From assembly GCA_034667725.1 (NCBI GenBank), contig JAXDQS010000003.1, positions 576,001 to 640,000 of the forward strand: a stretch of DNA of 64,000 bases, in the 5' to 3' direction. The position numbers and the translations under genes are program-made. The notes beneath the pieces are model-generated. The model saw only the letters and a program-made list of their open reading frames with translations, had not been told where the DNA came from and made no database searches. Numbering within the stretch: position 1 is the first letter of the stretch; every line of letters starts with the position of its first letter. Source of the stretch: Thermoplasmata archaeon. GTDB lineage: Archaea; Thermoplasmatota; E2; JACPAO01; JAHFTW01. This document shows positions 2,679-50,248 of the stretch, one piece after another.

Positions 2679-4667
2679 GTGGCGCAGCTGCCCTACCAGC
2701 CCCGTCCCGGGCAGGACGCCATGATGGCCGCCATCGCCACGGCGCAGCAGGACGGCGACCACCTCATCCTGGAGGCCGGCACGGGCACCGGCAAGACCGT
2801 CGCCGCCCTCGCCGCCAGCGCCACCACCACGGCCAAGGACGGCCGCCGCCTGGTCTACGCCACCCGCACCAACTCGCAGCAGGCCCAAGTGGTCGCCGAG
2901 CACGGCGCCCTCACGGCCGCGAACCAGGACCCGGGGCTGCTCATCCCGTTCATGGGCCGGCGCCACTACTGCCCGCTCCTGCGCAGCGACCCCCGCTTCG
3001 CCGACGGGACGGCCGAGGAGCTGGGCCGGCTGTGCCGCGACGCCAAGCGCAAGGCCACCCAGCAGCACGAGACCGGCAAGCCGGTGGCCGGCGGCTGCCC
3101 CTACTACCTGCGGCTGCTGCAAGACGGCCCCGGCCCCGTCGAGGCGCTGCTCTCCGAGGGCGGGCTGGACGGCGGCAGCCTGGCCGCCCGCGTCGAGGAC
3201 GCCGGCTCCTGCCCCTACGAAGCCCTCAAGCTCCTGATGCCGCGGGCCCGCACCGTCGTCGTGCCCTACGTCTTCGTCCTCGACGAGCGCCTGCGCACCA
3301 CGCTGCTGCAATGGATGGGCACCGGCCCCAGCGAGTGTCATGTCCTAGTGGACGAGGCCCACAACCTGCCCGAGGCCGCCCGCGCCCACTTCAGCCCCCG
3401 CCTGTCGGTGCGCACCATCGAGCGCGCCCAGAAGGAGGCCGAGGAGTACCAGGACCCTTTGCTGGCGGGCAGCCACCTCGCAAGCGCCGTGCTCGACGCC
3501 CTGCTGCGCGCCATCCACCGGCTGCGCGTGGAGCACGTGCGCGCCGACGCGGCCGGCGAGGAGGCCGACGGCCTGGTCCCGCCCGGCGCCCTCGACGAGG
3601 CCCTGCTCTACGCGCTCCGGATGCCGACCACGGGCCTGGCCCGGGTCGCCACCGACCTGGAGCGCTGGGGCGAGGCGGTGCGCGAGGACCGCCGCGCCAA
3701 GGGCCGGCTGCCGCGCAGCCACCTCGGCGCCGTCGGCGCGTTCCTGCACGGCTGGATGGCCAGCCGCGACGCACCCTATGTCCAGTTGGTGACGGGCGGC
3801 GACAACCCGGCGCTGGAACTGTACCTCCTCGACCCCGCCAGCGTCCTTGGCTGGCTGGCCGAGTTCCACAGCAGCGTCCACATGAGCGGCACCCTCCAGC
3901 CGCTGGCCGACCACCGGATCCTCTGCGGCCTGCCTGCCACGACGCGCCAGGTCGCCATCCCGTCGCCGTTCGACCCGGACCATCTGCGCGTGTACGGGAT
4001 GCAAGGCGTCCACCGCCGCTTCGAGGCGCTCCAGCGCGACCCCACGCTCGCGGAGCGGCAGCAGCGGCTCGCCGTCGACCTCCTCGGCCAATGCCCCGGC
4101 CGCACGGGCCTGTTCTTCCCCAGCCACAAGATGATGGAGGACTACCTGGAGGAGGGCTTCCTGCACGCCGCCGACCGGCCGCTCTACGTCGAGCGCCAAG
4201 GCATGTCCACCACGGAGCTGGGCGAGATGCTGGACGCCTACCGCGGCGAGCCCAGCGGCCGCGCCCTGCTGTTGGCCGTCATGGGCGGCCGCCTCACCGA
4301 AGGCATCGACTTCCCCGGCAAGGCGATGGAGCACCTGCTGGTCTTCGGCATCCCGTACCCCCGCCCGACCGCGCGCCTCCAGGCCCTCGTGCACCACTAC
4401 GACCGCGTCGCCGGCAACGGCTGGCAGGTCGTGGTCCACAACCCGGTCGGCCGGATGCTGCGCCAGGCCGCCGGCCGCCTCATCCGCGGCCCCGACGACC
4501 GCGGCACCGTGGTGGTCCTCGACGAGCGGGTGGTGCGGTTCCACAGCCACCTCGCCCGGCTCCGGATGGTGGACGACCCGGACGGCCTGCGCGCGGGCCC
4601 GGTCCCCGACGGCGGCTACCGCACCGCCGACCTGCTCCCCAGGAAGGCCCCTCCTGGACAGGCATAA
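2679..4667 (+). CDS. XPD/Rad3/DinG-family FeS DNA helicase
   Basis: Q motif PRPGQ, Walker A AGTGTGKT, FeS cysteines (YCP, LC, GCPYY, CPY), DEAHNL, SGTL, EGIDFPG, QAAGRLIR. Confidence 0.92.
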   Translation: MAQLPYQPRPGQDAMMAAIATAQQDGDHLILEAGTGTGKTVAALAASATTTAKDGRRLVYATRTNSQQAQVVAEHGALTAANQDPGLLIPFMGRRHYCPLLRSDPRFADGTAEELGRLCRDAKRKATQQHETGKPVAGGCPYYLRLLQDGPGPVEALLSEGGLDGGSLAARVEDAGSCPYEALKLLMPRARTVVVPYVFVLDERLRTTLLQWMGTGPSECHVLVDEAHNLPEAARAHFSPRLSVRTIERAQKEAEEYQDPLLAGSHLASAVLDALLRAIHRLRVEHVRADAAGEEADGLVPPGALDEALLYALRMPTTGLARVATDLERWGEAVREDRRAKGRLPRSHLGAVGAFLHGWMASRDAPYVQLVTGGDNPALELYLLDPASVLGWLAEFHSSVHMSGTLQPLADHRILCGLPATTRQVAIPSPFDPDHLRVYGMQGVHRRFEALQRDPTLAERQQRLAVDLLGQCPGRTGLFFPSHKMMEDYLEEGFLHAADRPLYVERQGMSTTELGEMLDAYRGEPSGRALLLAVMGGRLTEGIDFPGKAMEHLLVFGIPYPRPTARLQALVHHYDRVAGNGWQVVVHNPVGRMLRQAAGRLIRGPDDRGTVVVLDERVVRFHSHLARLRMVDDPDGLRAGPVPDGGYRTADLLPRKAPPGQA

Positions 4668-4678
4668 CTCGCAATACC

Positions 4679-4686
4679 TTTATATG
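4679..4686 (+). promoter_or_regulatory. Archaeal TATA box (TTTATATG) with no protein gene downstream on the + strand
   Basis: Near-consensus TATA in a very GC-rich background; expected start site near 4709. Confidence 0.6.
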
Positions 4687-4708
4687 CACGGGAAATGAGG
4701 GTCGCTAC

Positions 4709-4825
4709 GGAAGAGGCGCGCTGGAGTTTCTGAGTGCATCCCATCCCCTCCCTCGTGAGGCCAGCGAACCCTTCCTCCGCGCCCAGTCAGCCCTAGAAAA
4801 GCTGGCTGGGCGCGGTCATTCTTGT
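4709..4825 (+). ncRNA. Candidate structured small RNA
   Basis: TATA at suitable spacing; GGAAG/CTTCC and CGCTGG/CCAGCG stems enclose a C-rich loop; 15-bp hairpin 4777-4815 followed by a T-rich tail. Confidence 0.5.
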
Positions 4826-4892
4826 TCGGCCGGACCTTGTGTTCGCGTACAGCCGCTCCGCTGGTTCCTAGGTATCTGCCCCTGCGCGGCCG

Positions 4893-7076
4893 TCAGGCGC
4901 GCCGGCGCCGCAGCACCAGCGCCAACGCCAGCACGCCGACCGCCAGCAGCATCGGGGCCGGGCCCGGCGTGCCGGCCGAGGCGTCGGTGTCCAGCGAGCG
5001 GACCTGCTCGGCCTCGTCCGGGATGCCGGTGCCGGCCTCGACGATGGCGAACAGCCGCAGCAGGCTGCGCAGGCTGAGGTCGCTCTCGCTCGTGGCGGTG
5101 AGCACCAGGTCGGCGGCCTGGCCGGCGGGCGTGCCGTCGGGGACCTGGACCGCGACGTGGACTGTCGTCTCGCCTCCGGCAGGCACTTCGACGACGGCGG
5201 CGCCGAGGACGCGGGCCCATTCGACCTTGCTGCCGGCAAGCTCCAGGCGGAAGCTGTGCGCCTCGTCGGCGTGGTTCAGCAGGCGGGCCGAGAACAGCAC
5301 GGTGCGGCCGGGGTTGACGGCGCGGTCCTGCTGCGAGTCGGCCACCAGTTCGGCGCGCGACGCGAACACGTCGTTGACCGGGTCGTGGTACTCGGAGAGC
5401 GGAAGGGCCTCCAGGATGCCGCCGGGCAGGAGCTTGGGCATGTCGCCGCCGAAGAACGGGTCCACGCGGGTGCCCTCGAGGCTGATCACCAGGACCATCG
5501 AGGCGCCCTTCTCGTAGGCGATGAAGTCGGCCTCGGGCAGGCCGCCGACCTCGCCGGTCAGCATCTCCTGGCCGCCCATGAGGTCCAAGGGCGCCGAGGG
5601 GGCCAGGCGCAGCACGCCGGTGACGTTGCCGGAGTCGGCGAAGCCGCAGTCGCTGAAGCGGCTGAAGCCGCCGTCGGGCGGGCCGGCGCGCACGATGAGG
5701 CCGCTCAGGGTGGCGGCCAGCAGCGGGACCTGGGTCGTGACGGGGATGCGGTAGGTGCCGTTGGGCGCCGACAGGTCGACGTCCAGGCCAAGCTCTAGCG
5801 AGGGGCTGAGCGGGATGTTCCAGCAGTAGCGGGTGCGCGGCGCGTTGTCCTTGATCTCCATGCCGCCGCGGAAGTCGGGCGGGACCGGGACGCCGGCGTC
5901 CAGGCCGTCGACCTCGCCGGCGTTGAAGTAGGCCGTGTTGAAGGTGCCCGTGCCGACGAGGGCGGCAAGCACCGTGGACTGGGGGTCGTCGGGGCCGAGG
6001 ACGCTGTGCAGCCAGAGCGTGTTGTGGTGGCCGGCAGGCTGGGGCGGGTCGAGGTAGCGGATGCCAAGCTCGGCGCGGCCGACGGCGGAGGGGTCGCGCT
6101 GGGAGCGCATCTCCACGACGAAGTTCTGGAAGGCGCCGTGGACGTGCGTGAACGGCGTGGACACCAGCACCGGGAAGACGACGGAGCCGTTGCCGGGGAT
6201 CGGGATCTGCGAGGCGGGCAGCTTGACCTGCCAGTTGGCCGGCGCGCCGACGGCGACCAGGTTGAACAGGTCCTCGTCGGAGCCGAGGTTGAACGCCTCG
6301 ACCTGGTAGACGAAGGTGGTCGCCTCGCCGTTGGAGGCGCGCGTCGGAATCTCGCTCTTGAGGCGGGCGTGGCCGGTCTGCTGGACGCCGAAGGCCACCA
6401 CGAAGTCGAGGGTGCCGTTGCCGTTGTTGGGCATGGCGTCCGAGGCGCGGGGCACCGGCGTCTCCTGGCCGCCCGCGAGCGTCACGCCGCGGTTGACGTT
6501 GCCCAAGAGGCCGCTCGACTGGGCGTGGAAGCCCGTCAGGAGGGCGTCGGGCTGCGGGGCCGCGCCGTTGCTGTCGGCCAGCAGGTCGCGGTCCACGGTG
6601 ACGCGGAAGGTGGCGGCCGCCTGGTCGACGTCCACGACCTGGTCGGGGCCGACGCCATAGTAGATGCCGCGGCCGGGCTCGGAGGCCTGCACGCGGGCGC
6701 GGTAGTCAGAGGTGCCGTCGAGGCGGAAGCCGCGGGCGACCAGCTGGATGCGGAAGTCGCGGTCGCTGTGGTGGAAGAACAGGTTGTAGCTGCCCTGCTC
6801 GGCGACGGGCACGGCGGGCACCTGCGGGGCCATGCTGGCCACGGCGAGCGTGAACACGAAGCCCTCGGTGGTCTCCTGCAGGTCGAGGCCCTTGAGGTCG
6901 AGCGCGGCCATGCGTTCGGCCGGCGCGGCGGTGCCTTGGCCCGCCACCGTGACCGCCACGTCGGCGGTGCCGTCGTCCAGGAGGTGGACGGTCGGGTACT
7001 CGGCAGGGGCGGCCTGCCCGGCGATGGGGGCCGGGACCAGCAGGAGGGCGGTCAACAGCAGCGCCAAGGCTCGCAT
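4893..7076 (-). CDS. Large secreted cell-surface protein with C-terminal sorting-signal-like anchor
   Basis: N-terminal signal peptide; beta-rich body; ends TPGP + hydrophobic helix + RRRRA, resembling PGF-CTERM archaeosortase substrates. Confidence 0.75.
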   Translation of the reverse strand: MRALALLLTALLLVPAPIAGQAAPAEYPTVHLLDDGTADVAVTVAGQGTAAPAERMAALDLKGLDLQETTEGFVFTLAVASMAPQVPAVPVAEQGSYNLFFHHSDRDFRIQLVARGFRLDGTSDYRARVQASEPGRGIYYGVGPDQVVDVDQAAATFRVTVDRDLLADSNGAAPQPDALLTGFHAQSSGLLGNVNRGVTLAGGQETPVPRASDAMPNNGNGTLDFVVAFGVQQTGHARLKSEIPTRASNGEATTFVYQVEAFNLGSDEDLFNLVAVGAPANWQVKLPASQIPIPGNGSVVFPVLVSTPFTHVHGAFQNFVVEMRSQRDPSAVGRAELGIRYLDPPQPAGHHNTLWLHSVLGPDDPQSTVLAALVGTGTFNTAYFNAGEVDGLDAGVPVPPDFRGGMEIKDNAPRTRYCWNIPLSPSLELGLDVDLSAPNGTYRIPVTTQVPLLAATLSGLIVRAGPPDGGFSRFSDCGFADSGNVTGVLRLAPSAPLDLMGGQEMLTGEVGGLPEADFIAYEKGASMVLVISLEGTRVDPFFGGDMPKLLPGGILEALPLSEYHDPVNDVFASRAELVADSQQDRAVNPGRTVLFSARLLNHADEAHSFRLELAGSKVEWARVLGAAVVEVPAGGETTVHVAVQVPDGTPAGQAADLVLTATSESDLSLRSLLRLFAIVEAGTGIPDEAEQVRSLDTDASAGTPGPAPMLLAVGVLALALVLRRRRA

Positions 7077-7152: not shown

Positions 7153-13283
<6,131 letters not shown>

Positions 13284-13287
<4 letters not shown>

Positions 13288-14234
13288 TCCTTGACCTCTT
13301 GCGTGATGAGTTGGGCGGCCTCGGGCAGCTTGGGCGTGATCCAGATCTCGCCGTAGGGGAACTCCTCCTGGCTGACCTGGATGCGCTGCGACTTGGCAAG
13401 GAACAGGAGGGCGTTGAAGGTCTGCACGATGTCCATGGCGTTGGGCTCGTAGAGGCTGCTGAACGGAACCGGCGAGGCGGGGAACTCGAGGATGCGGGTC
13501 CAGGTCTCCGCGATCTCGGCCTCCAGGTCGTCCTTGTGCATCATGCCGCCAACACGGCCGCGCATCCGGCGCTTCAGGCTCAGGCGGGCTTGCAGGCGCT
13601 CCTCGTTGAGGACCAGGCGCTGCTGGGCCTCGGTGTGGACCTCCTGGAAGGCGTCGAGCAGTTCCATGAGGGTGACGCGGCGGTCGCCCTTGTGGCGGAT
13701 TTTCTCGTCGATGGGGGCTTGCGGCAGCGCCAGGACACGGCTGTTGAAGTCCACCTGGTCCTCGCTCCAGCCGTAGTCCGGGATGTCCTCCCAGCCGATC
13801 TCCTCGGGCTGGGCGGGCTGGAGCACGGCGCGGTCGGCGGCCTCCTGGGATTGCAGCTTGAGCACGGTCCACGCCATGAGGATGATGCGGCCTGCGGTCA
13901 CGAGGTCGACGCCGCGCGCCTTGGCCTCCTTGAGGTAGAGCTCGGCGAACTTGCTGAGGTCCATGTCCCAGGGGTCGAGGTGATTGTTGATGACCAGCTC
14001 GAAGGCGACGGCGAGGTCGCGGTGGAAGCCGTCCTTGATGGCGACGTGCTCGCCGTCCTCGCTCCCCGTGACCATCTCGATGTAGTCGGTGATGCGGCGG
14101 CCGTCGTCGTCATCGTCGATCATGGCCTTGTGCCACAAGAGGTGGCGCACGACCTGGGCGGTGTGCAGGGTGGCCTGGGTGGGCTCCTTGCGGACGACGG
14201 GGTCGGCGAACTTCGCCTGGGCGGGCGGGGCCAT
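13284..14234 (-). CDS. scpA: Kleisin ScpA
   Basis: LDPWDMDL, RRVTLMELL, FNALLFLA, QEEFPYGEI; lies between smc and scpB. Confidence 0.9.
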
Positions 14235-14320: not shown

Positions 14321-17300
14321 TCAAGGCTTCACCTCGACCTGGACCATGCTGGCCATCACGTCGCTCAGGGTGGTCTCCTTGGATTTCTGCGGCTTCGGCT
14401 TGGTGGCGACCTTCTGCTTGGCGCCGCTCGGGGCCGCCGGCGCGGTGGGGTCGGGCGTGGTGGCCTCGCCGTCGGCGCCGTCCATCGGGGAGCCGGCCCC
14501 GCCCTTCGGCTTGTCCTCGTCCCGGAGGGTGTCGATGTCGAAGTGGGCGATGATCTCCGACTGGCCCGGCGACTGCTGGGTGACGCCGTAGATGTGGCTC
14601 GCTTCCTTGAGGGTGATCTTGCGCAGGCTCACCACGATGAACTGGGCGAAGCGCGACGTGTCCTTGACCATCTTCGCGAGCAACTCGGAGTTGACGGCGT
14701 CGAGGTTCTGGTCGACCTCGTCGAAGTAGTAGAACGGGCTCGGCTCGTGGCGCTGGATGGCGAAGATGAACGCCATCGAGGTGAGCGACTTCTCGCCGCC
14801 GGACAGGGCATCGATGCGCAGCACCTTCTTGCCCATGGGCTGGGCCTTGAGGATGAGGCCGCCCGCAAACGGCTCCTCGGGGTTCTCCAGCTCCATGTGC
14901 GCGTGGCCGCCCAGCGTGAGCTGCGCGTACACTTGCGTGAACTGCTCGTTGACGGCGTGGAACACTTCCATGAGCGCCGCCTTCTTGTTGCGGGTGATCT
15001 CGGTGACGAGCGTCTCCAGCTCGCCGCGCTGCGTCTCGAGCCGGGCGACCTCGCCGCGCAGGTCCGCTTGCCGCTTCGCCTGCGTCTCGTACTGCTCCAG
15101 CGCCGTCATGTTGACGGGGCCGAGGCGGTCGAGCGCCTGCTCGGCGTTGCGGGCCTCGCGCTTGAGGTCCTCGATGGGTGCCACCTCCTCGCCGGGCGCC
15201 ACCGTGACGCCGGACGAGGCCAGCTCGACGGCGGCCTCGCCGTAGACCTCCTCCAGCGACGGCAGCTTGGCGCGGAAGTTGGCGATGAGGCCGAACTTGG
15301 TCTCCATCTGGTCGGCGACCTTGTCCATCTTGCCCTTGAGGTCGGTCAGGAGCTTGTAGGTGGAGTCGCGCGCGTCCTGGATGCCCTTGAGGTTCCCGGT
15401 CGCCTTCTTCTCCATCTTCATGAGCGCCTCGACCTCGGCCTGGGCCTTGCCGTAGGCGGCGGCCATCTCCTTGAGGCTGGCGTGCAGCTTCGTCTCGCTG
15501 CCGGCGCCGCCGTCCAGCTTGGCGGCGACCTCGGCGCGGCGGGCCTCGACCAGCGCCAGTTGCGTGGCCGCGACGCTCGCGTTGCCCTCGGCCTTCAGCG
15601 TGGCCTCCGTGAGGGCGCGGACTTCGGCGTCGAGCGCCTCGATGCGCTCCCGCAGGTCCTTGCGCGAGCCCTTGAGCAAGAGCTGGCCCTTCTCCTGGCG
15701 CAGCGCCTCCAGCTCGGCCAGCCGCTTGGCGTGGCCCTCGATGGCGGCGCCCGCCTTCGCGGCCTCGGCCTCCGCCGCCTCGCGTTGCGCGGCGAGCGCC
15801 TCGGCCTCCTTGCCGATGGCCCCGAGCCGCTCGTCGAGGAACGCGACCTTGCGCTCCAGCTCCTTCAGGCGCTCCTCCGAGGTGGCGTCCTGCGCGCCCT
15901 CGGCGGCCAGGCGCGTCTGGAGGTCGGCCAGCTCCTTGGCGGCGTCGGCAGCCTTGGAGGCGGCGTCGGCCTGCGCGGCCTCGGCGCCGGCGACCTCGCC
16001 CATGATCTCGTCCATGCGGCCGCGGTCGGCGTTGGTGAACGCGATGGCGTCGTCGCCCTTGCCCTTGGCGTGCTTGCCGCCCACCATGGCGCCCGACTTC
16101 TCGAACAGCTCGCCGTCGAGGCTGACGATGCGGACGCCGCCCATCATGCGGCGGCCCGTCGCCATCGTGTCCGCCACCAGGGTGTCCTGGAACACGTGCC
16201 AGAAGGCGTTCTGGTAGCGGGGGTTGAACTCGATGAGGTCGAGGGCGAAGCCGAGGCAGCCCTGCTCCTTGACCTTCATGAGCGACTGGCCCGACGGGCG
16301 GCCGGGGACCATCTTGTTGAGCGGCAGCAGCGTGACGCGGCCCGACTGCTTGCGCTTGACGAGGTCGATGCACTGGGCGGCGACCGCGTCGTCCTCGACC
16401 ACGACGGCGGTGAGGCGGCCGGCGGCGGCGATCTGCATGGCCTCCTGGTGCTTCGGGTCCACCTTGGCCAGCTCGGCGACGGTGCCGATGATGCCCTTGA
16501 TGTCGCGGCCGTCGCGGGCGGCCAGGACGTCCTGGACGGCGCGGCCGTAGCCGCCTTGGGCGCGGGCGGCGGCCTCCTCGTTGGCGCGCAGGTCGGCGAG
16601 GTCGCGCTGGAGGCGCCGGATGCGGGCCTCCAGCTCCTCGGCCTGGCGCATGCATTCGGACTGGGTCTTGCGGAGCTCGAAGGCGCGCTTCTCCAGCTCC
16701 TTGCGGTTCTTGCCGGAGCCGCCGGCAGTCTTCTGGAGCTCCTTGAGGCTCCATGAGGATTCCTTGTGGTCGGCCTCGACGGCCTTGCGGGTGGCGGCCA
16801 GCTCGGATTCGGCGACGTCGAGGCTCCGCAGCTTCTCGGCGGCGCGGTCGGCCTCCAGCTTGGCCTCGTGCGACTCGGTCTGCCGGGCCTCGAACTCGAC
16901 CTTGAGCTGCGACAGCTCGCGGTTGAGGGCCATGGCGTTGGAGTCGCCGCGGCTTGCGACCTCGCGGGCGGCGTCCAAGTCCTTGCGGCGAGCCGCCAGG
17001 TCGGCGTTGGCTTTCTGGTGGGCGGCACTCCACTCGGCCTGGGCCTTGCGGGTCTTCTCCAATTCCTTCTCGATGCGCCGGAGGTCGTCCGCGAGGGGCT
17101 GGGCGGCCTCCTTGGCCGTCTGCAGCTCGCCCTTGGCGAAGTTCATCTTCTCTTCCAGGCGGACCATCTGGTCGCGCGCCTGCTTGATGCGCTCCTGGAG
17201 CTTCTGCACTTCCTCGCCGCCCTCGGCGCGCAGCTTGGCCTCCAGCTCGGCGTACTTGGCCTGCGCCTCGCCGAACTTGGCGCGCATGGCCTCGAGCTCG

Positions 17301-18103
17301 CGGCCGGACTCCTCGCGGCTCTTGGTGACGGACTCCATGTCGGCGCGGACCTTGGCGATCTGGGCGGCGGCGTCCTCGCGGCGGCGCCAGGCCATGAGGC
17401 CCTTGAGGCGCTTGACGGACTCGGTGAGCTCGCGCCACTTGGCGGCACTCGCCTTCTCCTTCTCGAGCTGCGCCATCGAGCGGCCGATCTCGTCGAGGAC
17501 GATGCCGATGCGCTCCAGGTTGGCGCCGACCTCGCCCTTGCGGACGTCGGCGGCGGCGATGTCCTTGTCGAAGGTGGTCACACCGGCGATGTCGTCGAGG
17601 ATTTTGCGGCGGTCGCCGTTGGACATGGTGCAGATGCGCAGCACGTCGCCCTGCTGGGTGATGTTGTAGCCGTCCGCGGAGATGCGGGCGTGCGTCAGCA
17701 GGTCGATGAACTCCTTCTTCTGGCTGGCGCGGCCGTTGACGTAGAAGTAGCTGGAGTAGCCGTCGGGGTCGTCGTCGCGCGGGGTGAGCTTGACGCGGCG
17801 GGTGAGGGTGACCGTGTCGGAGTCCACCGGCATGGTGCGGTCGGCGTTGTCGAACACCAGCGAGACGACGCAGTGGTCGGCGCCCTTGCCCTTCTCGCCG
17901 CCGTTGAAGATGAGGTCCGAGAGGCGGCCGGCGCGGATGGCGCGGGGCGAGTTGGGGCCGAGGACGAACAGGATGGCGTCGCCGATGTTCGACTTGCCCG
18001 AGCCGTTGGGCCCCGTGATCGCCGTGAAGCCGGGCTCGAACGGCACCGTGATGCGCCGGCCGAACGACTTGAAGTTCTCCATCTGGACTTCGCGCAGGTG
18101 CAT
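14321..18103 (-). CDS. smc: Chromosome segregation protein SMC
   Basis: NFKSF, GPNGSGKSNI, coiled coils, hinge (GRVTLLPL, GAMVGG), LSGGEKSL, FDEVD; start at ATG 18103. Confidence 0.97.
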   Translation of the reverse strand: MHLREVQMENFKSFGRRITVPFEPGFTAITGPNGSGKSNIGDAILFVLGPNSPRAIRAGRLSDLIFNGGEKGKGADHCVVSLVFDNADRTMPVDSDTVTLTRRVKLTPRDDDPDGYSSYFYVNGRASQKKEFIDLLTHARISADGYNITQQGDVLRICTMSNGDRRKILDDIAGVTTFDKDIAAADVRKGEVGANLERIGIVLDEIGRSMAQLEKEKASAAKWRELTESVKRLKGLMAWRRREDAAAQIAKVRADMESVTKSREESGRELEAMRAKFGEAQAKYAELEAKLRAEGGEEVQKLQERIKQARDQMVRLEEKMNFAKGELQTAKEAAQPLADDLRRIEKELEKTRKAQAEWSAAHQKANADLAARRKDLDAAREVASRGDSNAMALNRELSQLKVEFEARQTESHEAKLEADRAAEKLRSLDVAESELAATRKAVEADHKESSWSLKELQKTAGGSGKNRKELEKRAFELRKTQSECMRQAEELEARIRRLQRDLADLRANEEAAARAQGGYGRAVQDVLAARDGRDIKGIIGTVAELAKVDPKHQEAMQIAAAGRLTAVVVEDDAVAAQCIDLVKRKQSGRVTLLPLNKMVPGRPSGQSLMKVKEQGCLGFALDLIEFNPRYQNAFWHVFQDTLVADTMATGRRMMGGVRIVSLDGELFEKSGAMVGGKHAKGKGDDAIAFTNADRGRMDEIMGEVAGAEAAQADAASKAADAAKELADLQTRLAAEGAQDATSEERLKELERKVAFLDERLGAIGKEAEALAAQREAAEAEAAKAGAAIEGHAKRLAELEALRQEKGQLLLKGSRKDLRERIEALDAEVRALTEATLKAEGNASVAATQLALVEARRAEVAAKLDGGAGSETKLHASLKEMAAAYGKAQAEVEALMKMEKKATGNLKGIQDARDSTYKLLTDLKGKMDKVADQMETKFGLIANFRAKLPSLEEVYGEAAVELASSGVTVAPGEEVAPIEDLKREARNAEQALDRLGPVNMTALEQYETQAKRQADLRGEVARLETQRGELETLVTEITRNKKAALMEVFHAVNEQFTQVYAQLTLGGHAHMELENPEEPFAGGLILKAQPMGKKVLRIDALSGGEKSLTSMAFIFAIQRHEPSPFYYFDEVDQNLDAVNSELLAKMVKDTSRFAQFIVVSLRKITLKEASHIYGVTQQSPGQSEIIAHFDIDTLRDEDKPKGGAGSPMDGADGEATTPDPTAPAAPSGAKQKVATKPKPQKSKETTLSDVMASMVQVEVKP

Positions 18104-18374
18104 CGCTATCGGACCCGGGTCAGGCAGCGCTCGCGCAGGGGCCCACGCTGGAGCCATGGCTTTGCGAGTGCATCCCTTCCCGAGGCTCCCGAGCCTGGCG
18201 TTCGGGTATAAGTCTTGGCAGAAAACCTCGATTTCCGGTGGAGGTCCAGCAAGCCTTGACGGGAGGATTGTGAACAGGTCTGGTGCTTGTTGCCGCGACC
18301 CCAAAAGCGGCATGAGGCTGGCGGCGGCAGACGGAAAGCGCAGCCTCTTGGCCTGCCTGCGGCTCGCCGCCTTC

Positions 18375-21740: not shown

Positions 21741-22430
21741 TTGCAGGAACAGCTGCTGGAGAAGATGGCGGGGGAGATCACCCTCAGCAACCAGCCGGGG
21801 CCGACCATGCGCAAGTGGCGCGAGTCGTTCGGGGTCAGCCAAAGCGAGCTGGCCGCCCACCTCGAGGTCAACCCCAGCGTCGTGTCCGACTACGAGTCCG
21901 GCCGGCGGGCCTCCCCCGGCATCGCGACCGTGCGCCGCATCGTGGAGGCCCTCGTGGCCATGGACGTCGAGCGCGGCGGCCACGTCCTGGCCCGCTACCA
22001 GAGCCTCCTCAACCCGCTGGAGGGCATCCTGGGCATCGGGGAGTACCGCCGCACCGTGCCCGCCAGCGAGTTCGTGCGCCGCATCGACGGCCGGGTCCTC
22101 GTCACCGCCGGGCTGGCGGAGCGGGGCATCCAGGGCTACACCCTCATCGACTCCATCAAGGCCATCGCGAGCCTCAACGCCACCGACTACGTCCGCCTGT
22201 ACGGCTGGAACACCCAGCGCGCCCTCTGCTTCACCGGCATCAAGTACGGCCGCAGCCCCATGATCGCCATCCGGGTCCACCCCATGAAGCCGGCCATGGT
22301 CGTCTACCACCGCCCCGAGGACGTCGACAAGCTGGCCTACCGGTTGGCCGAGGCCGAGCAGATCCCGCTGGTGGTGACCGAGCTGGAGATCCCCGAGCTG
22401 GAGGCGAGGCTGCGGGAGATGGTGGCGTAG
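21741..22430 (+). CDS. Archaeal XRE-type HTH transcriptional regulator (COG1709-like)
   Basis: MAGEITLS, MRKWRESF, SVVSDYESGRR, GRSPMIAIRV; start uncertain. Confidence 0.8.
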   Translation: MQEQLLEKMAGEITLSNQPGPTMRKWRESFGVSQSELAAHLEVNPSVVSDYESGRRASPGIATVRRIVEALVAMDVERGGHVLARYQSLLNPLEGILGIGEYRRTVPASEFVRRIDGRVLVTAGLAERGIQGYTLIDSIKAIASLNATDYVRLYGWNTQRALCFTGIKYGRSPMIAIRVHPMKPAMVVYHRPEDVDKLAYRLAEAEQIPLVVTELEIPELEARLREMVA

Positions 22431-50099: not shown

Positions 50100-50248
50100 T
50101 GGGCATCCCCTCCCGGGGTTGGAGCCACCCAGCCAGCATCCGGAGATAAGGGTTCAGTTGCACCAGGAACATGGGTTGCAAGGAGTCGTTCGACCCGTCA
50201 TTCGCATTCAACAGGCACAAATGTACCGATTGCTTGGCGGCCTTCGCC

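Follow-up and report, generated by a model that had tools for sequence, protein, structure and literature searches.

Small RNAs (sRNAs) that repress ftsZ have been described in bacteria, namely DicF of Escherichia coli and DinR of Klebsiella pneumoniae (PMC10907235). Archaeal sRNAs with any known target are few (PMC5867862), small or antisense RNA goes unmentioned in a review from 2024 on the archaeal cell cycle (PMC7617429), and the coordination of segregation and division in FtsZ-dividing archaea is still largely open, with the known regulators being proteins, e.g., CdrS. In the 64,000-nt stretch of Thermoplasmata DNA analyzed here (the window), positions 4709-4775 (+) almost certainly represent an undescribed hairpin sRNA gene of about 67 nt, the transcription of which is inferred. 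Like DicF and DinR, this sRNA would act in trans by pairing at the ribosome-binding region of ftsZ (predicted here) and would curb division. DicF and DinR, however, are found in bacteria, depend on Hfq, arise by processing of prophage or 3' UTR transcripts and have a narrow range, whereas the archaeal sRNA features its own promoter, is spread over most of the phylum and has matches to smc, sepF and nrdJ in addition; it resembles them neither in sequence nor by Rfam.

RoxS/RsaE of Bacillus and Staphylococcus is a larger, multi-hairpin RNA. It shares with the archaeal sRNA a C-rich single-stranded seed and binding at the extreme 5' end of messages (inferred for smc and sepF), but is bacterial with a metabolic regulon, and the protection from RNase J1 shown there is conjectural for the archaeal sRNA (PMC5419742). 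StsR of Rhodobacter sphaeroides is likewise conserved and pairs with a division-gene leader; it differs in being bacterial, in acting via RNase E cleavage of the dcw leader and in having no smc target described in the abstract (PMC8266604). The Methanosarcina mazei sRNA154, sRNA41 and sRNA162 are similar as archaeal intergenic RNAs with a loop-borne anti-RBS sequence and several targets, but these targets are metabolic, conservation is confined to Methanosarcina and none is described for the cell cycle (PMC5867862). The haloarchaeal CdrS regulon also covers ftsZ1 and cdrS-ftsZ2, but CdrS is a protein acting on DNA upstream of promoters; it binds, in addition, above HVO_1885s, an RNA of unknown function (PMC8406309).

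According to the reading we favor, with a probability of roughly 0.62, the locus encodes an independently transcribed, trans-acting base-pairing sRNA that represses initiation on a cell-cycle regulon, where transcription, pairing, repression and the condition of expression are inferred. The putative sRNA meets the comparative tests for a multi-target RNA with a C-rich seed and belongs to no Rfam family, while expression and function remain inferences from sequence. What is new is that smc-scpAB, sepF and nrdJ emerge as conserved targets, that covariation was tested at the level of families and that a box was recognized in the promoter. In our literature search, which left out most subscription journals, neither the sequence of the seed nor an RNA of this kind came up in any paper. 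One RNA probably helps to time the archaeal cell cycle, again with inferred expression and function: the predicted regulon comprises five cell-cycle operons, and the seed is found over most of the phylum including the abundant marine Poseidoniales. Natural compensatory pairs represent ready-made controls, and with this sRNA, control of the archaeal cell cycle by RNA can be tested directly.

The locus (Table 1) is situated between the gene of an XPD/DinG-type helicase (+) and a convergent gene; beyond it, the minus strand carries gyrA, gyrB, scpB, scpA and smc. A previous sequence-only reading had listed a TATA box, stems, a C-rich loop, a 15-bp hairpin and the absence of a plus-strand gene, all of which we found in place; no plus-strand ORF of at least 80 aa covers the locus, and no ORF is conserved across the sRNA homologues. 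The 3' two-thirds of the loop are predicted to be single-stranded, and the loop end resembles the 16S anti-Shine-Dalgarno tail at 9 of 10 positions (16S end taken from relatives). The terminator-like hairpin (4777-4815) is far more stable than expected (z -5.6; none of 200 shuffles as stable) and occurs as a single copy in the genome; in nine close relatives its sequence is unrelated, with 14-19 bp being kept and the plus strand being more stable in seven. The core hairpin alone folds only weakly better than shuffles (z -1.6), so that its support comes from conservation and covariation. Adjoining the sRNA at 4893-7067 is a gene for a large secreted Ig-fold protein, at which position most relatives of family f1 carry pyrB-pyrI. 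A helix-turn-helix-type gene at 21741-22430 is the divergent sRNA neighbor in family f11 (L235, L236), whose sRNA has a longer 3' loop.

Table 1. Features of the sRNA locus, the smc-scpAB locus and related sites (window positions unless contig or locus labels are given).
Feature	Position	Strand	Basis and remarks
XPD/DinG-type helicase gene	2679..4667	+	Pfam; upstream neighbor of the sRNA throughout family f1 (synteny)
sRNA promoter TATA box	4679..4685	+	Sequence; 30 nt upstream of the first G of the hairpin
ORB-like DNA box, sRNA promoter	4685..4701	+	Between TATA and inferred start; family f1 only
sRNA core: outer stem, inner stem, large loop	4709..4775	+	Conservation and covariation
sRNA outer stem	4709-4713 with 4771-4775	+	Sequence
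sRNA inner stem	4719-4724 with 4761-4766	+	Sequence
sRNA 5' arm	4719..4726	+	Second pairing segment, lineage-specific, freed when the stem opens; complementary to 18146-18153
C-rich loop (seed)	4733..4751	+	19 nt, invariant or nearly so; CAU twice
sRNA 3' arm	4755..4765	+	Third segment, pairing with leaders of ftsZ2 and nrdJ (family f1)
Terminator-like 15-bp hairpin and T-rich tail	4777..4827	+	Genus-limited; T-run instead in other lineages
scpA and scpB, downstream of smc	12373..14234	-	PF02616, PF04079; bounds from own gene calls
smc (target gene)	14321..18103	-	TIGR02169 above cut-off, Pfam
Second smc leader site	18146..18153	-	Sequence, cofold; pairs with sRNA 5' arm
Seed site at inferred 5' end of smc-scpA-scpB mRNA	18166..18181	-	About 70 nt before the start codon; upstream AUG inside
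smc promoter TATA box	18206..18212	-	Sequence
ORB-like box upstream of smc TATA	18226..18242	-	16/25 f1 smc promoters vs 1.9% background
ORB-like boxes elsewhere in this genome (G000)	C10:222999, C10:293807-293843, C7:8510, C3:568774, C6:16309, C2:121811, C1:25524		Sequence pattern
sRNA paralogue loci of f4/f44	L193, L194, L196-L199, L222, L223, L560, L567		Listed together

The putative sRNA is kept across most of the phylum Thermoplasmatota. Of 301 genomes from the phylum, 221 contain its 14-nt core and none the reversed control; the exact 19-nt loop is present in at least 119 records, nearly all of them labeled Thermoplasmatota, Poseidoniales or Euryarchaeota, with three labeled otherwise. 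Both copies noticed earlier, in the hairpin and at smc, turned out to be conserved in relatives: blastn detected the sRNA element in 45 of 61, and the seed matches at 8 or more of 9 positions in the smc leader of 25 of 30 close relatives, compared to 2.8% of the upstream regions of this genome. The homologues follow a common plan in which a closing stem and the loop are succeeded by either a T-run or a genus-specific hairpin and, in most, preceded by a TATA box at a distance of 27-36 nt; these signals would provide each with its own promoter and terminator, as expected for an independent sRNA gene, with no ends being mapped. Changed loop ends are found in families f5, f18, f29 and f48. Searches with the exact seed, two covariance models and the region below LSm gave no clear homologue in f12, f20, f24, f26, f28, f34, f38, f39 and f40, which does not show its absence. 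Two to three paralogues are present in family f4, some of them arranged in tandem, and in one the loop is shorter by one base; G162 (f44) carries at least two copies. In G108, from a family without a full homologue found, a short C-rich stretch with the 11-nt core follows a TATA box (L505:1470-1540; G108:C1:1439237) and could be a minimal form; one ftsZ of this genome has a matching site. Among viral sequences, the 15-mer gave 54 matches, the best inspected of which lies within an ORF, lacks the closing stem of the sRNA and is taken as chance.

Covariation, proposed earlier as a check, revealed a conserved stem with two-sided changes. The inner helix is paired in 91% of cases with such changes at all six pairs, which none of 500 shuffles reached, and slid registers performed worse. 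Across 24 families, the 5' arm pairs with its own 3' arm at -26.2 kcal/mol compared to -20.6 kcal/mol after swapping (none of 20,000 permutations as good). As kin are not independent, these figures overstate the support. With RNAalifold, no structure emerged from a MAFFT alignment, owing to misalignment of the outer stem by bulges. A conserved accessible seed within a conserved structure, as required of a trans-acting base-pairing sRNA, is given.

The sRNA is predicted to pair with the leaders of smc-scpAB, ftsZ1, ftsZ2, sepF and, in some lineages, nrdJ, which we regard as very probable with pairing in the cell being inferred; all target seeds lie on the sense strand of the leaders. The sequence-only reading had inferred a trans-acting antisense RNA on the smc-scpAB leader from a recurrence of the hairpin sequence, which proved real (8/8 at 18146-18153, 15/16 at 18166-18181). 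Conservation and joint changes support this idea, but it was incomplete, smc being one of at least five targets. The 16-mer has two matches with up to two mismatches in the window (shuffle mean 0.03), the 11-mer occurs at only two places of the 2.3-Mb genome (71% GC, assembly 90% complete), namely the sRNA loop and the smc leader, and a genome-wide count recovered the 16-mer with at most one mismatch only at the hairpin loop, smc and cdrS-ftsZ2.

At smc, the seed is located 28-36 nt below the TATA box, usually at 28-30 nt and hence at the inferred +1, mostly with an extra GGGAT just upstream; on the antisense strand of the leader, the 9-nt seed was found in none of the 30 relatives. The 8-nt second match is an example of two-segment pairing, separated by a short self-complementary spacer (18152-18161) and conserved only in some close relatives. 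The smc site persists in many distant families, with f5, f9 and Poseidoniales having a shorter form that reaches into the start codon of smc, and is missing at that position from most families without a detected sRNA. The AUG within the site occurs in all three frames and opens no conserved peptide.

Regarding the other targets, 8 f1 and 10 f4 genomes carry a complement of 14 nt without mismatch, placed behind the stop codon of cdrS and 75-145 nt upstream of ftsZ2. In f1, ftsZ1 leaders show the order GGGAT, hairpin, 9-mer, ATG (18/30 vs 1.1% background), and the 5' UTR of sepF is hardly more than the 9-mer, 0-2 nt before the ATG (25/30 vs 0.28%). Leaders of nrdJ, encoding a class II ribonucleotide reductase, combine a long site with a stretch complementary to the 3' arm (7/22 vs 2/2121). 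The distant, single-contig genome G207 contains the 9-mer 15 times (control: 0), and of the six non-coding copies one is the sRNA itself, two overlap ftsZ starts and one belongs to smc. Cofolding in the genome under study gave ddG values of -40.6 (ftsZ2), -24.9 (nrdJ), -13.4 (ftsZ1) and -9.4 kcal/mol (smc), each better than 39-40 of 40 shuffles, with smc pairing more weakly than ftsZ2 or nrdJ. Plain duplex energy distinguishes only ftsZ2, and none of the other targets, from antisense controls at the 71% GC of this genome, and a genome-wide duplex ranking is uninformative since it is swamped by GC content. Some sRNA-bearing genomes (G033, Poseidoniales) are without a clear ftsZ2 site.

Several further matches were observed. 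A UPF0058 gene with hardly any leader, the start codon of which is covered by the 9-nt seed (L192:1798-1806; G000:C1:25797), is a possible further target, and in f4 the gene for an EarA-like regulator (L540; G046:C3:62684) and several other near-leaderless genes have starts that overlap with the seed. In the window, the leader of a glutamine synthetase gene (50100-50115, -) carries an 11-nt complement to the second register of the loop over its Shine-Dalgarno sequence, which may be chance.

Mechanistically, the single-stranded C-rich loop would nucleate on the GGGAUG(GGAUG)CAC site of a target leader, and pairing could then extend to one of the arms (5' or 3'), which would unfold the sRNA stem and bypass mRNA hairpins; blocked initiation would lower FtsZ, SepF and SMC when cells should not divide. 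The predicted duplex ends 0-2 nt before the AUG at sepF and ftsZ1, ends beside the ftsZ2 Shine-Dalgarno sequence in f4, f5 and f9, and covers that sequence in several ftsZ genes of other orders, so that blocked initiation is the most likely effect. The parallel to DicF, DinR and sRNA41 and the likeness of the loop to the 16S tail also favor it by analogy, and a mainly repressing role, although inferred, appears rather probable. Simple masking of the ribosome site does not fit the smc site, about 70 nt from the AUG, or the f1 ftsZ2 site at about 100 nt; the predicted position of the former at the extreme 5' end resembles, by analogy, that of RoxS on yflS.

The main alternative, possible though doubtful, is that the same sRNA and the same pairing stabilize or activate some or all targets. 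A duplex at the 5' end (smc, sepF, ftsZ1) or after cdrS could block a 5'-3' exonuclease or guide processing, the upstream AUG of smc could be masked, or a dual role as for sRNA154 might exist, which both stabilizes and represses (PMC5867862). The start of the smc, sepF and ftsZ1 sites 28-30 nt below the TATA box, at the inferred +1, would suit such protection. RoxS binds a 5' end via its C-rich region and blocks RNase J1 (PMC5419742), and the genome under study encodes aCPSF1 and two more beta-CASP proteins, one weakly RNase J-like. The RNase J-like match is far below the cut-off, however, and duplexes abutting or covering the start codons and Shine-Dalgarno sequences named above speak against it.

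Both options presume RNA pairing. If instead a cell-cycle transcription factor, e.g., CdrS, recognized the shared word in the DNA, the hairpin locus would be a decoy or a regulated promoter, and the sequence-only reading had similarly considered a protein-binding element bracketing the gyrBA-scpBA-smc block. The sites do lie at inferred starts of co-functional genes, cdrS-ftsZ2 included. The word is asymmetric, however, with the mRNA strand invariably rich in G and the sRNA strand in C, whereas the Haloferax CdrS motif is symmetric and located 41-110 nt upstream of start sites (PMC8406309). Moreover, two other DNA motifs, i.e., TGTCAGACA repeats and the ORB-like box, already mark these promoters. 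The word also extends into lineage-specific stem sequence, and in the leaders of ftsZ1 and ftsZ2 the site is split between its paired segments by variable hairpins of 0-35 nt, an arrangement presumably not tolerated by a DNA-binding protein.

Joint changes of sRNA and leader point in the same direction. In f5, f9, f18, f29 and f48, an altered loop or arm is accompanied by a matching ftsZ2 leader, with matched runs of 13-20 nt. The f5 sRNAs lost GUG before CAUCCC, and in their ftsZ2 leaders the match covers 19 nt of the altered loop and 10-16 nt of the 5' arm; in G053 (f9), the leader matches 20 nt of the arm, and in G089 (f29), G069 (f18) and G201 (f48), it matches the respective altered loop ends. 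Changes of the 5' arm are matched in ftsZ2 leaders of f4, f5, f9 and f29, and in G039 an A-to-U change in the sRNA arm is mirrored in the target. Using one genome per family and simple duplex energies, cognate sRNA-ftsZ2 pairs outperformed swapped ones (12 families; permutation p about 1e-5). Transitions in the 9-nt seed of the targets comprised 10 wobble-keeping and 9 pair-breaking changes. Together with the looped-out mRNA hairpins, the joint changes indicate RNA pairing rather than a protein site on DNA, the latter being improbable. The distance of 13 kb between sRNA and smc is incidental, because in relatives the loci are far apart or on other contigs. With complementary sites in unlinked mRNAs and compensatory changes, the comparative hallmark of a base-pairing sRNA is fulfilled.

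A guide RNA (C/D or H/ACA, with a K-turn) or an rRNA-pairing RNA could likewise be small and phylum-wide with an invariant single-stranded stretch, and the 16S-like loop end would fit. Yet none of 66 homologues has a C box, no ACA tail is present, and the supposed K-turn hint did not hold, as CTGA occurs in only 10 of 66 homologues and together with GTGA in five. The 16S and 23S rRNAs of relatives offer no good complement (at best about -20 to -27 kcal/mol, and with bulges; tRNAs not included), and the Infernal search suggested earlier found no Rfam 15 family (DicF, RsaE, sRNA154, snoRNAs) at gathering score or E ≤10, leaving this option highly improbable. Two related minus-strand micro-ORFs starting with Met-His can practically be dismissed: the reverse complement reads as Shine-Dalgarno sequence plus AUG, but TATA and T-run mark the plus strand, and the peptides of 3 to more than 60 aa share nothing past residue 3 and commonly suffer frameshifting indels.

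Returning to the trans-acting sRNA, its promoter gives a hint on its own control. In f1, an ORB-like box is kept 24 nt before the inferred sRNA start; with TTCC and GAA cores and a G-string it has the sequence features of an ORB, with one core mismatch here and none in G006, G007 and G011, and resembles Pyrococcus ORB cores (PMC1904270; PMC3936714). The box is a candidate repressor site for an Orc1/Cdc6-type protein, the binding protein being inferred. Since single mini-ORBs bind Cdc6 only weakly in Pyrococcus (PMC1904270), the factor remains unproven. Of 23 such boxes in this genome, 17 are intergenic, compared to 12% of the DNA, but this count is partly circular because the pattern was written after seeing these sites. 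Among them are boxes preceding cdc6, mcm/hef, cdrS-ftsZ2 (two), sepF, a volactin gene, the nrdJ region, UPF0058 and smc, so that an Orc1/Cdc6-type transcriptional regulon for the cell cycle is possible, without binding data. Only tentatively, the sRNA might be a master post-transcriptional cell-cycle switch in a feed-forward loop with Orc1/Cdc6 or another box-binding factor, which would turn on smc, cdrS-ftsZ2, sepF, mcm and cdc6 and shut the sRNA promoter, while the sRNA would silence the same messages at other times. If true, this loop would couple replication to segregation and division.

As a separate observation, paired TGTCAGACA-type repeats lie just below the cdrS TATA box in f1 (L191, L206-L213) and also in smc promoters of other families (L464, L465, L467, L470, L472, L474, L483); they represent a candidate CdrS-like operator.

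No LSm/SmAP gene was detected in the 90%-complete assembly by tblastn or with an HMM of 30 phylum LSm proteins, and family f1 has lost the LSm neighbor of the sRNA; the missing gene weighs against the base-pairing sRNA reading. In favor of this reading, the sRNA is located just below an LSm gene in many families (67 of 186 loci, which are not independent). L149 and L179, labeled Saccharibacteria and Proteobacteria, carry the Thermoplasmatota 19-mer and are probably misbinned contigs; in L179, the 19-mer likewise lies below an LSm gene.
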